Shown here: piece after piece, positions 38,776 through 56,771 of the stretch
Position numbering within the stretch: position 1 is the first letter of the stretch
Layout of the letters: each line of letters begins with the position of its first letter
Source: Planctomycetota bacterium
GTDB taxonomy: Bacteria > Planctomycetota > SZUA-567 > H5-PLA8
Assembly: GCA_038227875.1 (NCBI GenBank)
Contig: JBBRPR010000019.1
Location: 1-64,000 of the forward strand
Direction: 5' to 3'
DNA length: 64,000 nucleotides
The notes under the pieces: model-generated
Told to the model about the DNA's origin: nothing
The model's input: only the letters and a program-made list of their open reading frames with translations
The model's database searches: none
Translations under genes and position numbers: made by a program

Positions 38776-40767
38776 TTGGTTGAGGAAATGTCGTTTCCTC
38801 GAGCGTCCATCCGTTGCACGGGCTCGCTGCAGATCAGCGGACGTGTGCGGTACGCTCACGCCAAATTAGTGTCGCGCTTTATGCTCTGTGGAGTTCTGGC
38901 CTGTGCGGCCGGGGCGCTCCAGGCGGGCGACGATTCAGGTCCGGTTCTACGCCGCGTAGAATCGATCACCAGCAGCGAAGATATCCAAGCCGGCACGCAA
39001 GCGCCCGGCGCGCTGATCACGCTTGAAGTCAATGAGCGTCCCCTCAAGCAGGTGTTGGACTATCTCTCCACCGTCAGCGGAAAGAACATCCGCGTCGTCA
39101 AAGAGAAGGACAACAAGCTGCTGATCACGTTCAAGCTTGAGAACGTGACCTACCGCGCGATTCTCGATTTCATTGCCCGCAAATATGGCATGGTCATCGA
39201 TGACACGCAGTTGCGCACCGGCAACATCATTTTCGTGGATACGCCTGAAAAGGTCTCCATGGTGTTCCAGCGCGCCGACATCCGCGACGTCATCAACACC
39301 ATCGCGATCCAGTCGAACGCCAACATCGTGATCGGACCGGAAGTAACCGGCGAAGTCTCGATGCGCCTGGAGAACGTGCCTTGGAACGACGCGCTGAACA
39401 TCGTCGTCAAGACGTTGGACTTCGTGGCGGTGCCGGAAGTCAACAACACCATCCGCATCACCAGCCCGGCGAAAATCGCACAGCAGCTGGACATCCGCAT
39501 CTTCCGACTGGCGTACATTTCGCCGGAAGGTTCGAAGTACACCGCGGTGCTCAACAGCGAATTTGCCAAGCGTGAAGAATCCAAGGATACCGCCGCCGCC
39601 GGCCAGTCGTTGATCGACGTGCTGACGAAGGTCAAGGGATCCCAGGGTACGATCTCGTTTGAAAAACGCTCCAACGCCCTGGTTGTCCGCGACACGTCCA
39701 CCAGCCTCGACCAGATGCAGTTGATCATCGACAAGCTGGACGTTCCGCCCAAGCAGGTGCACGTGGCCGTCAAGCTCGTCGAACTCTCCGATTCCGATTC
39801 GGAAGCGATCGGCGTGGACTGGGGCAACGGACTGCAGCTCCAGGTCAATCCGATCAGCGGCTTCTCGACTGCCTTCCCATTTGACGTCTCGAACGGGCTG
39901 AGCAACTCGCTGCTGGGCAAGTTGGCGGTCGGTCTTGCGCCCACCCGCGTCCCCGCTGGAAACACGCACGTCGGATCTGACATCTTCGGATTGGGATCCT
40001 CAGTCAACCGCGGCGGCGATGGACTGCCCACCTCCGTCTCCCCCTTGGGTCTGGGTTCGGTGAGCACGGCCGGCACCAATGCTCTCCTGCAGTTGATTCG
40101 CACCAAGACCAGCGGCCGGGTCATCCAGGCACCGCAGATCATTGCGCTGGATAACGAAGAAGCCACGATTCAGGTCGGCGAACTGGTCCGCTACGCGGAA
40201 ACGTTCGTGGCGAACACTGAAGGTGGTGGAAACGTTTCCGGTTTCCGCGAAGCTTCCGGCTCGCCCATCAAGCTGGGAACGCAGCTCCTGATCATCCCGC
40301 ACGTGACCGGACCTGAAAACAATGTGCTGATGACGGTGGTGCCGAAGGTTGAAAGCTTCAGCACTTCCCGCAGCGGACTCAACGGCGCTCCGGCCGGATT
40401 CCAGCGCTTCAACGGCGCGGGCATCTCGTTGGACTTGCCGCAAACCGCCCAGCGCATCGTGGTGACCAAGATGATGCTGCGCAACGGCGAAACGGGCGTG
40501 ATCGGCGGACTGCGCGCCGAAACCGACGCGACGTCGGAAACGAAAGTTCCGATCTTCGGCGAAATTCCGGTGCTCGGCCGGTTGTTCAAGCACCGCGGCG
40601 CCTCGTCGTCCAGCACCAACCTGCTGGTCTTCGTGACACCGACGATTGTTGACTTCCACGAAAGTGATACGTTCAAGAAGGAACTCGACCGCCTGAAGCA
40701 GGACTTCTCCCGGCCTTTCACGCCGCTGGGCGAAGAAGAAGAAACCACGGCCTCGGCGGCCAAGTAA
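38776..40767 (+). CDS. pilQ: PilQ-like secretin
   Basis: STN/N0 domains (ADIRDVINTIA...VSMRLENVPWNDAL), N3 (SNALVVRDT...LDVPPKQV), secretin core (APQIIALDNEEATIQVG; GETGVIGGL; KVPIFGEIPVLGRLF; LLVFVTPTIV); start uncertain. Confidence 0.92.
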   Translation: MVEEMSFPRASIRCTGSLQISGRVRYAHAKLVSRFMLCGVLACAAGALQAGDDSGPVLRRVESITSSEDIQAGTQAPGALITLEVNERPLKQVLDYLSTVSGKNIRVVKEKDNKLLITFKLENVTYRAILDFIARKYGMVIDDTQLRTGNIIFVDTPEKVSMVFQRADIRDVINTIAIQSNANIVIGPEVTGEVSMRLENVPWNDALNIVVKTLDFVAVPEVNNTIRITSPAKIAQQLDIRIFRLAYISPEGSKYTAVLNSEFAKREESKDTAAAGQSLIDVLTKVKGSQGTISFEKRSNALVVRDTSTSLDQMQLIIDKLDVPPKQVHVAVKLVELSDSDSEAIGVDWGNGLQLQVNPISGFSTAFPFDVSNGLSNSLLGKLAVGLAPTRVPAGNTHVGSDIFGLGSSVNRGGDGLPTSVSPLGLGSVSTAGTNALLQLIRTKTSGRVIQAPQIIALDNEEATIQVGELVRYAETFVANTEGGGNVSGFREASGSPIKLGTQLLIIPHVTGPENNVLMTVVPKVESFSTSRSGLNGAPAGFQRFNGAGISLDLPQTAQRIVVTKMMLRNGETGVIGGLRAETDATSETKVPIFGEIPVLGRLFKHRGASSSSTNLLVFVTPTIVDFHESDTFKKELDRLKQDFSRPFTPLGEEEETTASAAK

Positions 40768-52239: not shown

Positions 52240-53175
52240 TTAGAATCCAAATCCCAAACCCACCCCCACGCGCGAATGACCGCCGTGGTAGTAACCAAAG
52301 TTCACCGAGCTGCGGGGATAATAGTAGTACGGGTACGTGCGGTAGTAGCTCGGCGCGTAGATGATCGGCGGCGACACGTAGACGGGATCGCGGTAGATCA
52401 CGGTCGACTGCGGCACGGAGTAGACCACTGGCGGCTCGGCCGGCGTGACGTACTCCGTTGACGGCACCGTCACCTGAGCTTGCGCCGGAGCAGGGCCATC
52501 GCGGAAAACCGCCAGGCGGCCGCCCTGCTTCTTCTCGCCGTTTTCGAAGACGCTGACATACAGCGCTTCCAGTTGCGCCGTATCGACGCGCGAGATCAGG
52601 ACCTGCGACTTCCGGTGGTTGTAGACCGTCACGGTCGCGCCTCTATCCTGGCCGCTATAACGGATCTGGTAGACGCCCGTCTTCATGCTCAACCGCAGAT
52701 TCGCGTTCGGCGCGATGCGGCCACCCCGTTCGGCGGGGACGATCCAAATCGTGTTCAAGTCCGGTTCGTAGCGGTAGGACCACGCGCGGTTGTCGAGGTT
52801 CTCGAGATCCAGCGAGCCTTCGCCCGCTTCAATCGGCGCGGCCGGCACAACTTCCGGCGGTGCAGCTGGCGACGGCGCAGCCTGAACCGGCGGCGCGGCT
52901 GGCGCGACGGCTACAGGCGCCGAGGCGGGAGCGGCATGGTGTTTCAACATCGCCGTGATCACCGAATTCGGCACATTGGCGTTCTTGAGCTTGATGATGT
53001 CTGGCGCCGTAAGGTTGAATTCCGTTTTGGAATTGCTGACCGTGGCGAGAATGATTTCTTCGCCGACGTTTTTCTGCGACAAGGTGACAATGTCATCGAC
53101 CGATTCCGCGTGCGCCGCGAACGGCGCGAGTGCGCCAACGAAGAGCGTCAACGCGGCAAGCTGTAAAATGCGCAT
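52240..53175 (-). CDS. Exported hypothetical protein with small helical N-domain and Tyr/Pro-rich tail ending in an amphipathic beta-hairpin
   Basis: Signal peptide (AAHA); DIIKLKNANVPNSVITAM; ends VNFGYYHGGHSRVGVGLGFGF; GGAGG RBS. Confidence 0.75.
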   Translation of the reverse strand: MRILQLAALTLFVGALAPFAAHAESVDDIVTLSQKNVGEEIILATVSNSKTEFNLTAPDIIKLKNANVPNSVITAMLKHHAAPASAPVAVAPAAPPVQAAPSPAAPPEVVPAAPIEAGEGSLDLENLDNRAWSYRYEPDLNTIWIVPAERGGRIAPNANLRLSMKTGVYQIRYSGQDRGATVTVYNHRKSQVLISRVDTAQLEALYVSVFENGEKKQGGRLAVFRDGPAPAQAQVTVPSTEYVTPAEPPVVYSVPQSTVIYRDPVYVSPPIIYAPSYYRTYPYYYYPRSSVNFGYYHGGHSRVGVGLGFGF

Positions 53176-54527: not shown

Positions 54528-55217
54528 ATGGTAAACATACGCCCTGCGCTGATCGCTCTCTGTGCGCTAATCTTAGTCTGCGGCTGGAGCCAGGCGCCGA
54601 ATCTCGCCGCGCAGGCGTACGACCGGCCGCATGCACTCAAAATCCAAGCACCACAAATTATCACATTGGATTGCGAAGAGGCGACTATCGAGGTCGGCGA
54701 GTTGGTGCGGTATGCCGAAACATTTGTCGCCGCGAATGTCCGGGACGGGGCTACACCGCGGATGTACATCTGCCCCAAAGATTGCCAGCACGGCAAAATT
54801 TATCCCAGTGCGGCCGGGGAGAAATGTCCTGTCTGCCATTACCGCTTGTATGAAATTCGCGACGGCCGGATTGAACACAGTAACCACCGGCCGCGGCATG
54901 GCGGTGTCTTCTTCATGGGACAGGATGGCTTTCATCACGTTGAAGGCGTTTTGATTTCCGCTACTGAATTCCGACTCTATGTGTACGACAACTTCACCGA
55001 ACCGCTGAAAGAAACCTGCTCCGCGAGCGCGGAATTCATTCAGAACAAGAATGCGCCGGTGAAAGTGGACCTGAGCCGCTACGCGGACGGGGCATTTCTG
55101 TCCGGCGAGGTTCCAGTGGGATTTCCGATGCCTCTGTCGCTGGCCGTGCGGGTCCGCTTCGGTGAGCAGCGGGAGGGCATGCTCTTCAATTTCACGTTTG
55201 ATCGTTTGACGCGCTGA
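54528..55217 (+). CDS. Exported heavy-metal-binding-domain protein carrying a secretin-derived peptide
   Basis: Signal peptide; MYICPKDC...KIY...KCPVCHYRL; HSNHRPRHGGVFFM...HHVEG...RLYVYD; 30-aa copy of a PilQ segment at 54642-54731. Confidence 0.75.
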   Translation: MVNIRPALIALCALILVCGWSQAPNLAAQAYDRPHALKIQAPQIITLDCEEATIEVGELVRYAETFVAANVRDGATPRMYICPKDCQHGKIYPSAAGEKCPVCHYRLYEIRDGRIEHSNHRPRHGGVFFMGQDGFHHVEGVLISATEFRLYVYDNFTEPLKETCSASAEFIQNKNAPVKVDLSRYADGAFLSGEVPVGFPMPLSLAVRVRFGEQREGMLFNFTFDRLTR

Positions 55218-55262: not shown

Positions 55263-56771
55263 TTACTTCTTCGGCTTGCCTTTGAACAGGTCCAACCAAT
55301 TGCGTTCCTTGAAGAAAAACGTGTAGCTGCGGCCGTCTTCGAAGGTGGCTTTGGCGTCGCTGGGGATCTGGTTGGCTTCGAGGGCGTAGTTTTTCTCGCC
55401 GCCAGCGGAGCTGGAGAATTTCACCTGGAAGCTCACGGCGCCCGGACAGGTGTAGAACCAGCCTTTGCCGTCAGGAATTTTGCCTTGAGCCCAGCGCGTG
55501 TACGAGCCGTCCCATAATTTCCAGCGGCAGACGATCGAGATATACTGCGAAGACGTCGCCAGCGGATTGTGAAAGGCGACCACGCCCTGCCGCGTCAGCG
55601 CGATGGCGCGCTGCTGGGCGAGAAACTGTTCCTGACGCGCTTTGGCTACTTCACGCTTGGCGCGTTCGATCTCGTACTTGCGCTGCGCTTCTTCACGGGC
55701 GCGGGTGACAGCGGCGTCTTCCTGCTGCTGTTTGGCCTTGATCGCGGCCAGTTCGTCCTGGGCGCGCTCCAGTTCCAATTCATCTTTCAAATCTTCCTGA
55801 GCCTGCGCGATGGCTTCGCGGCGGGCTTTCTCGAGTTCGCGCGCGTTCTCGGCGGCCTTGGCGCGCGCGGCGGTTACGGCGGCGGCGTCTTCTATGGCGG
55901 CGTTGTTGTCCGCGGCGTTGATTTCATCCAGACGCTGCTCGAAGCTCCAGACCTGGTACGCGCCGGTTTGGGAATTCCATTCGAGAATGCGGTCGCCGTC
56001 CATGTAATGGAAGCTGACACCCGGGGCGGCGTGCGGCCATTCGCCTTCTGCCAGCGGCTTGCCGGGGAAGGGATCTTCCGCGCCGCGCTGCGTCATGTCA
56101 TAAGCCCAGATCCGGTAGCGGCCGGAATCTTCCCAATCGAGCACACGGTCGCCGTCGAATTGCATCAGATGGTGGCCGGCCTTGATCGATTTCCACGTGC
56201 CTTCCGCGATGGGCTTGCCGGGAAACGGATCGTCGGCGCCCTTCTTTTCGCGGTCGTAAAACCAGATCCGATAGTGTCCGGTCTCCTCGACCCAATCGAG
56301 GACCGCGTCGCCGCCCATGTAAATCAACGTGTGTCCGGCATTGATCGAGCCCCACTTGCCTTCCACGTCAATTCCGGTGAGCGGGTCGCGATTTCCCGCA
56401 ATGCTGCGATCGTAGGCGAAGATGCGGTAGCTGCCGGTTTCCGGTTCCCAATCGAGAATCCGGTCGCCGCCCATGTATACGAGTTGATGGCCATCGGCGA
56501 TACTTTTCCACGTACCTTCAACCACGGGGCCGCCGGGAAGCGGATCGGCTTTGCCGCTGCGCTCGCGGTCGTAACGCCAGATGCGGTAGTGACCGGACGA
56601 TGGCTCCCAGTCGAGCAGGCGGTTGCCTTCTAAATAGACCAGTTCATGCCCGCTCTTGATGGACTTCCACACGCCACTGCAGACGGGGCCGTTGAAGGGA
56701 CCGTCTGCCGCCACGAGGCTCAGCGAAAAGACAACCGCCAACAGCACCGCGCTTCGCAGAATGGGTTTCAT
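55263..56771 (-). CDS. Secreted protein with five ~52-aa repeats (predicted beta-propeller), coiled coil and small C-terminal domain
   Basis: GxWxSIxxGHxLxYxxGDRxLDWExxxGxYRIWxYD...DPxPGxPxxE repeated five times; A/E/K/R-rich helix. Confidence 0.85.
   Translation of the reverse strand: MKPILRSAVLLAVVFSLSLVAADGPFNGPVCSGVWKSIKSGHELVYLEGNRLLDWEPSSGHYRIWRYDRERSGKADPLPGGPVVEGTWKSIADGHQLVYMGGDRILDWEPETGSYRIFAYDRSIAGNRDPLTGIDVEGKWGSINAGHTLIYMGGDAVLDWVEETGHYRIWFYDREKKGADDPFPGKPIAEGTWKSIKAGHHLMQFDGDRVLDWEDSGRYRIWAYDMTQRGAEDPFPGKPLAEGEWPHAAPGVSFHYMDGDRILEWNSQTGAYQVWSFEQRLDEINAADNNAAIEDAAAVTAARAKAAENARELEKARREAIAQAQEDLKDELELERAQDELAAIKAKQQQEDAAVTRAREEAQRKYEIERAKREVAKARQEQFLAQQRAIALTRQGVVAFHNPLATSSQYISIVCRWKLWDGSYTRWAQGKIPDGKGWFYTCPGAVSFQVKFSSSAGGEKNYALEANQIPSDAKATFEDGRSYTFFFKERNWLDLFKGKPKK

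Follow-up and report, generated by a model that had tools for sequence, protein, structure and literature searches.

A PilQ gate segment, probably copied long ago, in an exported HMBD-type metal-binding protein of a Planctomycetota bacterium

On contig JBBRPR010000019.1 of a Planctomycetota bacterium, a gene located about 14 kb downstream of pilQ and behind a glycosyltransferase gene encodes a small, presumably exported protein which, ahead of a predicted metal-binding part, carries 30 residues matching the type IVa pilus secretin PilQ. The comparisons presented here point very strongly to a PilQ segment that was copied long ago and kept by purifying selection in its new host, where an asparagine-to-cysteine change has become fixed. 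With regard to function, the reading that we favour, at a probability of roughly 0.4, is that the old copy works as a gate-arm look-alike by which the metal-binding protein would be docked at or in the PilQ channel.

The window, i.e. the whole stretch of 64,000 nucleotides that was analysed, had previously been described in a sequence-only reading, which placed the host open reading frame of 229 amino acids at 54528-55217 on the forward strand and gave its parts as signal sequence, PilQ-like piece, CxxxC...CxxC module and His-rich domain. Both the frame and the order of the parts were confirmed, the module reading CPKDC...CPVC. The relevant features, with their basis in brackets, are the following:

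38776..40767, + strand: pilQ, type IVa pilus secretin of 663 amino acids (Pfam Secretin at 3.1e-36, Secretin_N, N0/STN)
40123..40212, + strand: source segment within pilQ, PilQ residues 450-479 (translation, codon comparison)
54528..55217, + strand: host gene, exported metal-binding protein with the PilQ-derived piece, 229 amino acids plus stop (ORF list, translation)
54528..54584, + strand: signal sequence, residues 1-19, ending LVC-G (read from the sequence)
54579-54581, + strand: Cys18, possible degenerate lipobox (read from the sequence)
54585..54641, + strand: variable linker, residues 20-38, with a small conserved P-H-(A/P)-L motif at its end (alignment)
54642..54731, + strand: PilQ-derived piece, residues 39-68 (codon comparison, genome search, profile, alignments)
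54672..54674, + strand: Cys49 (TGC), in place of the Asn of the secretin LDN (translation, alignment)
54696-54698, + strand: pivot Gly57 of the piece (alignment to secretins)
54732..54761, + strand: short linker, residues 69-78, the AANVRDGATPR region (alignments)
54762..54860, + strand: four-cysteine HMBD-like module with Cys82, Cys86, Cys100 and Cys103 (20 relatives)
54861..55214, + strand: His-rich beta-sandwich domain with H117, H120, H124, H136 and H137 (AlphaFold2 model, invariant His)
55017-55019, + strand: Cys164 in the His-rich domain (sequence)

The piece at 54642-54731 translates as IQAPQIITLDCEEATIEVGELVRYAETFVA and the pilQ segment at 40123-40212 as IQAPQIIALDNEEATIQVGELVRYAETFVA. 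A re-count reproduced the earlier figures of 27 identical residues out of 30, of which 7 use the same codon. At the DNA level, 65 of the 90 bases are identical (25/30, 29/30 and 11/30 at the first, second and third codon positions, respectively), and the similarity is confined to these 90 bases. In a six-frame search of the whole genome, a 9.3-Mb draft in 176 contigs with 88% completeness and 4% contamination, the two sequences found each other in both directions, the small protein retrieving the pilQ segment at E = 1.5e-9 and PilQ retrieving the piece at 9.7e-9; the match is far above chance. The eight other secretin paralogues of the genome reach at most 37.5% identity to the peptide, over 24-27 residues. 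The codons of the piece are rarer than those of the pilQ copy, at a mean relative frequency of 0.34 against 0.54, and the GC3 of the piece, 0.57, compares with 0.66 for the whole host gene and 0.78 for pilQ; since it comprises only 30 codons, this rarer usage is no proof of a foreign origin.

PilQ itself, which is preceded by the genes for PilM and PilO, has its closest solved structures in the type IVa PilQs of P. aeruginosa (6ve2, 9x0w). In an alignment with chain 5wln_G, the T2SS secretin XcpD of P. aeruginosa, its residue G468 comes to lie on chain position 432, and chain positions 443 and 446 are T and S; with a chain-to-paper offset of 34, which we infer from these residues, the three positions would be G466, T477 and S480 of XcpD. 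In a study of XcpD, G466 is described as the pivot glycine, T477 and S480 as gate-tip residues, and the central gate as residues 466-496, following the inner-barrel strand beta21 (PMC10550240). Because PilQ G468 aligns with the XcpD pivot at this offset, the piece runs, as far as alignment can tell, from the end of an inner-barrel strand through the invariant pivot glycine and along the first arm of the central gate to about its tip. The sequence-only reading had held that the match runs beyond the secretin consensus through ELVRYAETFVA. This does not stand: residues 39-68 fall on positions 11-40 of the 169-position Pfam Secretin profile, and the form ELVRYAE(T/S)FVA is typical among PilQs of the same bacterial family.

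The piece is thus homologous to the secretin central gate (XcpD 5WLN 466-496 with pivot G466; hinge G439 in VcPilQ). It represents, however, only 30 of about 170 secretin-domain residues, without the second gate arm, the outer barrel and the N domains, and with the invariant Asn replaced by Cys in the small proteins. The Secretin profile PF00263 scores 13.1 bits on the window protein (E = 0.075) against a cut-off of 27.5. Judged by its sequence, the host protein is not a secretin and cannot form a channel.

Given that the genome is a draft (176 contigs, 88% complete, 4% contamination), one may ask whether the piece results from an assembly or binning artefact, the chance of which we put at next to nil. 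Two contigs from runs of different studies, neither of which is the likely source sample, X3 record 6 (54572-54721) and X6 record 9 (54644-54794), each bridge one junction of the piece with at least 63 bases on either side, and both do so with 0 differences. A separate assembly encodes the same protein with a single substitution, A68D (P0003), and diverged orthologues exist as well; the piece is hence found beyond this assembly, to which the sequence-only reading had considered that it might be confined. Moreover, repeat-driven misjoining is excluded by the DNA identity to pilQ of 72%.

The part of the protein behind the piece belongs to a large family. At E <= 0.001, 392 relatives were found among 1.84 billion representatives, nearly all of which cover residues ~75-229 only, and their usual architecture consists of a lipobox, an N-terminal domain of ~150 residues, the HMBD and the sandwich; in the window protein, the PilQ piece stands where the relatives have the N-terminal domain. 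The earlier assignment as a heavy-metal-binding protein held for the family and in part for the protein. The HMBD profile PF19335 matches 11 of 20 aligned relatives (best E 8.2e-10) and is precomputed for P0010-P0014, whereas the window protein itself stays unmatched at E <= 1, with no Pfam hit of any kind at E <= 0.01. The window protein nevertheless contains the two CxxC-like pairs in HMBD style, C82/C86 and C100/C103; among the 20 relatives, the second pair is invariant and the first almost so. Compared with the HMBD (PF19335) lipoproteins encoded near RND/Cus-type pumps, the C-terminal 150 residues are homologous and the Cys4 and His motifs are conserved; in contrast to them, the host protein has the PilQ piece for an N-terminal domain and its gene does not lie beside an efflux pump. 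By homology, it is an exported metal-binding protein of the HMBD type with a new architecture. The same genome holds a paralogue of the usual architecture on contig C70 (L002:907-1983, +), a lipoprotein of 358 amino acids that is 41% identical over residues 77-225 and adjoins an opposite-strand gene which, by eye, is RND efflux pump-like; this neighbourhood would fit a role of the family in metal efflux.

Export is predicted from the hydrophobic, signal-like N-terminus. Bacterial lipoboxes, which close the signal sequence, follow the motif [LVI][ASTVI][GAS]C, and canonical versions occur in relatives (LLAGC in the C70 paralogue, LTGC in P0010, VSGC in P0017). In the window protein and in its orthologues P0004 and P0005, the cysteine at the signal end is conserved and stands in the contexts I-L-V-C, V-L-V-C and I-L-L-C, respectively, so that position -1 is Val or Leu, not Gly, Ala or Ser; P0004 has LVCC and P0005 LLCC at the end of the hydrophobic stretch. 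The host protein is probably a lipid-anchored lipoprotein.

AlphaFold2 models residues 111-229 as all-beta, with block-mean pLDDT values of 81-96. Values below 50 are found for residues 24-53 with an alignment of 20 rows and for residues 18-72 with one of 4 rows, and just 4 rows cover the piece. A Foldseek comparison of the model with the PDB gave no match at E <= 0.001, the weak fold matches being DUF4426, CrdA and Tp34, and a protein atlas returned HMBD-type look-alikes only, all of them below 0.9. The short linker behind the piece reads x-(T/V)-(E/D)-G-A in the orthologues and is, by eye, reminiscent of the PilQ gate tip NTEGG. From RNA run X16, a single contig (54300-54427) was obtained, which lies within the glycosyltransferase gene 19 bases upstream and is uninformative on the host frame. 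Two further exported proteins are encoded nearby on the minus strand, both with no Pfam match. The one at 55263-56771 (502 amino acids) contains about five repeats of ~45 residues (G.WKSI..GH.L.Y..GD..LDWE..TG.YRI..YDR) and, behind them, a charged region that is probably a coiled coil; the other, at 52240-53175 (311 amino acids), has a proline-rich middle and a Tyr/Pro-rich C-terminus.

The age of the piece and the selection acting on it can be judged from two full-length metagenomic orthologues, P0004 (236 amino acids) and P0005 (223 amino acids), which are 59-62% identical overall and both carry it. Among the three proteins, 22-24 of the 30 residues of the piece are identical, compared with 94-101 of 150-151 (63-67%) in the C-terminal part and 4-6 of 18 in the linker before the piece. 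In pairs of PilQs that are 60-65% identical overall, the same segment keeps a mean of 24.1 of 30 residues (n = 35, range 19-28); the piece therefore evolves about equally slowly in the small proteins and in PilQ. Where 19 of 19 PilQs have the Asn of the LDN (Asn460 in the PilQ of this genome), each of the three small proteins has Cys, and this derived residue argues for a single origin followed by descent. The pivot Gly is likewise present in 19 of 19 PilQs; it is kept in the window protein and in P0004, and is Ala in P0005. Selection at the protein level, as proposed in the sequence-only reading, is thereby borne out: orthologues at 59-62% identity keep 22-24 residues of the piece and share the derived Cys.

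At third codon positions, the window piece shares 11/30 with its own pilQ and 7-13/30 with the pilQ of 18 relatives from other genera, whereas the genome's own pilQ shares 7-23/30 with the pilQ of the same 18 relatives. As the piece is no more similar at these positions to its own pilQ than to those of the relatives, synonymous sites are near saturation. In protein sequence, each of the three pieces has its best match in the PilQ of this genome (27, 25 and 23 of 30); the donor was a PilQ of this lineage. A recent chimera, picked up from a related organism's pilQ, consequently finds no support, given the presence of the piece in orthologues, i.e. before their split, its closeness to the genome's own PilQ, the shared derived Cys and the saturated third positions. 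Taken together, conservation in the orthologues, the shared Cys and the third-codon divergence point to an old exaptation under purifying selection, a conclusion drawn from sequence comparison that we hold with high confidence.

Regarding co-variation with PilQ, position 6 of the piece is Ile in the window protein and its own PilQ, Leu in P0004 and P0005, and Ile in 5 of 19 PilQs; the shared Ile could be coincidence. The genome contigs surveyed for further co-variation material yielded 23 loci, all of them distant (27-56% identity over partial stretches) and none with the piece.

The gene is rare. Among 20 genomes of the order it occurs in this one only, and the homologue in genome G013 comprises the C-terminal part without the piece. 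As a candidate for a decayed piece, the region upstream of the G013 homologue was rejected, since only the CPxxC region aligned and the score was reached by 13-100 of 500 shuffles. Of the 150 relatives listed among the 392, P0005 and P0015 are the only two that extend into the piece. The proteins P0006, P0015 and P0162 are called from a Val or Met just before (K/R)YAET(F/Y)V and, as called, contain the second half of the piece only and no signal sequence; these short forms may reflect either true loss or a wrong start call. P0019 (222 amino acids, 39% identical in the family alignment) begins with VSGFREA, which equals the returning gate arm of PilQ and directly precedes its HMBD. This is a single case, and its N-terminus may be cut off; a search with P0019 as query found no longer form. 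A word-based search with residues 31-80 returned only P0003 as a carrier among 3 candidates, a method insensitive enough to have missed P0004 and P0005. A scan of metagenomes gave a single locus, a 109-amino-acid frame (L056:12-341, +) ending QIITLDCEEATLEAG..., which is probably a chance hit, as eight of these residues equal the search pattern; this frame lies directly upstream of a 533-amino-acid membrane protein that is nuoN-like by eye. In the open-access papers and bioRxiv preprints searched, no secretin fragment was described in a non-secretin protein.

What, then, could be the function of a gate arm in a metal-binding protein? In the mechanism that we propose, the PilQ residues of the segment would be constrained by their packing against neighbouring PilQ strands and gate arms. 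In the small proteins, 22 of the 30 positions of the piece are invariant and lie on both strand faces, and the retention of the same residues on both faces makes a pairing of the free copy with the same PilQ surfaces the most plausible interpretation. Through such a pairing, the protein, which is probably lipid-anchored, would come to sit at the periplasmic lumen of the PilQ channel or inside it, where it might tether the metal-binding domain or else plug or regulate the gate. A precedent for the location exists in P. aeruginosa, in which SlkA and SlkB are described as periplasmic proteins in the PilQ lumen at the gate; the authors of that report predict that bacteria without Slk have unrelated plugs (PMC13392014). 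In addition, the present genome encodes two further stand-alone exported proteins that are built from PilQ periplasmic domains.

Several observations speak against docking. Since the three small proteins have all exchanged the PilQ-invariant Asn460 for Cys, and P0005 has Ala at the pivot, the piece is under constraints that differ in part from those within the barrel. The joint occurrence of Cys49 and Cys164 fits an intramolecular disulfide. Once a secretin has assembled, PilQ's own segment already occupies the partner surfaces, and the host gene is not adjacent to pilQ. If the short calls of P0006, P0015 and P0162 are right, the piece would furthermore be dispensable in part of the subfamily. 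A complex prediction with two copies of PilQ 328-640 and residues 24-229 of the small protein gave a score of 0.01 against a mark of 0.32, an uncontrolled value that weighs neither for nor against binding.

The pattern of cysteines leads to the main rival reading, which we regard as somewhat less probable than docking, namely that the piece has an internal role. It would form a strand-turn-strand element in the protein's own fold or metal site, held by a Cys49-Cys164 disulfide and with no contact to PilQ, and its likeness to PilQ would be retained ancestry in a slowly evolving element. In line with this, Cys49 and Cys164 are both present in all four full-length carriers (the window protein, P0003, P0004 and P0005) and both absent from the three short calls (P0006, P0015, P0162), and the number of free non-module cysteines is even (2, 4, 4) if the first Cys of LVC(G/C) is lipidated. 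The fixation of the Asn-to-Cys change and the Ala that P0005 tolerates at the pivot point the same way. Yet in neither AlphaFold2 run does the region fold or pack, which is weak evidence with the 4 rows that cover the piece, and relatives without it seem complete with an HMBD and a sandwich of the same kind. Nor would an internal role lead one to expect a sequence so close to PilQ (3-7 substitutions), with 22 invariant positions on both faces.

A rate of conservation like that of PilQ could also be explained without any free surface on the assembled PilQ, if the piece were a tag for a shared third partner. An envelope factor such as a chaperone, a pilotin-like protein or the insertion machinery would recognise unassembled PilQ, and the small protein would borrow the segment in order to reach the outer membrane or the same site. 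The position of the piece, which immediately follows the export signal and a flexible linker, would suit this, but we consider it improbable: the secretin targeting signals described so far are the S domain or an N-terminal lipid anchor, we know of no factor that recognises the inner-barrel/gate segment of secretins, and the neighbouring genes give no pointer to a partner. Still less probable, in our view, is that the piece is a neutral leftover, i.e. a functionless chimera that arose by a recombination accident or from a relative's pilQ and whose low dN/dS dates from its time inside a working pilQ. The dN/dS between piece and pilQ alone cannot separate these two histories, and the rarity of the gene (1 of 20 genomes of the order), the two listed relatives that reach the piece (P0005 and P0015, among 150 listed of 392) and the orthologues called without the first strand would all be compatible with such a leftover. 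Against it, orthologues that are 59-62% identical share the piece, which in them has changed less than the remaining protein and much less than the linker, and it is still in frame with a fixed derived residue.

Returning to docking, which remains our preferred reading, a more specific version can be imagined that we nonetheless judge rather unlikely. In this version, the host protein would be a lipid-anchored regulator that inserts its gate-arm copy among the arms of PilQ or of its assembly intermediates and thereby plugs, props open or caps the pore, in a metal-dependent or metal-routing manner by means of its HMBD and His-rich domain; together with the two proteins built from PilQ N domains it might form a PilQ-derived accessory set.

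As for PilQ-like sequences elsewhere in the draft genome, full Secretin domains are found in nine genes, two of them in tandem on contig C18. A 418-amino-acid exported protein on contig C12 (G000:C12:140274-141527; L057:1275-2531, +) contains the PilQ periplasmic domains in swapped order, N3-like and then N0, with 55-56% identity to residues 75-237 of the genome's own PilQ, followed by ~110 C-terminal residues without an assigned identity; it has no secretin barrel. The other 19 genomes of the order yielded no counterpart; across all 20, its remaining matches are PilQ genes and one 34% stretch in a 3317-amino-acid frame of genome G010. On contig C18, a 205-amino-acid exported protein (G000:C18:122158-122775; L058:1158-1775, +) that is 37% identical to PilQ residues 36-222 consists of GspD-like N0 and STN domains only. 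Lastly, 36 residues within a 2592-amino-acid frame on contig C10 (G000:C10:119577-119684, +) match PilQ 274-309 (N3) with 53% identity at E = 6.5e-5, a match that may represent either a further short PilQ-like piece in a large protein or simply a Secretin_N domain of the ordinary kind.

Few openings in the outer membrane are as large as those of secretins, and the question of how cells seal and regulate them is still open. The first dedicated secretin plug proteins, SlkA and SlkB (PA5122/PA5123), were described in 2026, and in the accessible part of that report neither secretin-derived sequence nor a metal-binding domain is mentioned for them (PMC13392014). If docking holds true, the host protein would resemble them as an exported protein in the PilQ lumen at the gate. 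Binding is demonstrated for Slk (PMC13392014), whereas for the host protein docking is proposed, and the likeness would be one of function.

Overall, the conserved gate-arm copy would, if docking is true, represent a ready-made and sequence-defined candidate partner of a secretin, and it would be a natural case of beta-barrel regulation by strand mimicry that might be used in the design of peptide inhibitors. Whatever its function, the piece provides a clean case in which a very short fragment of a membrane barrel has, as its conservation suggests, been exapted into a soluble-type protein and held there by selection for a long time.
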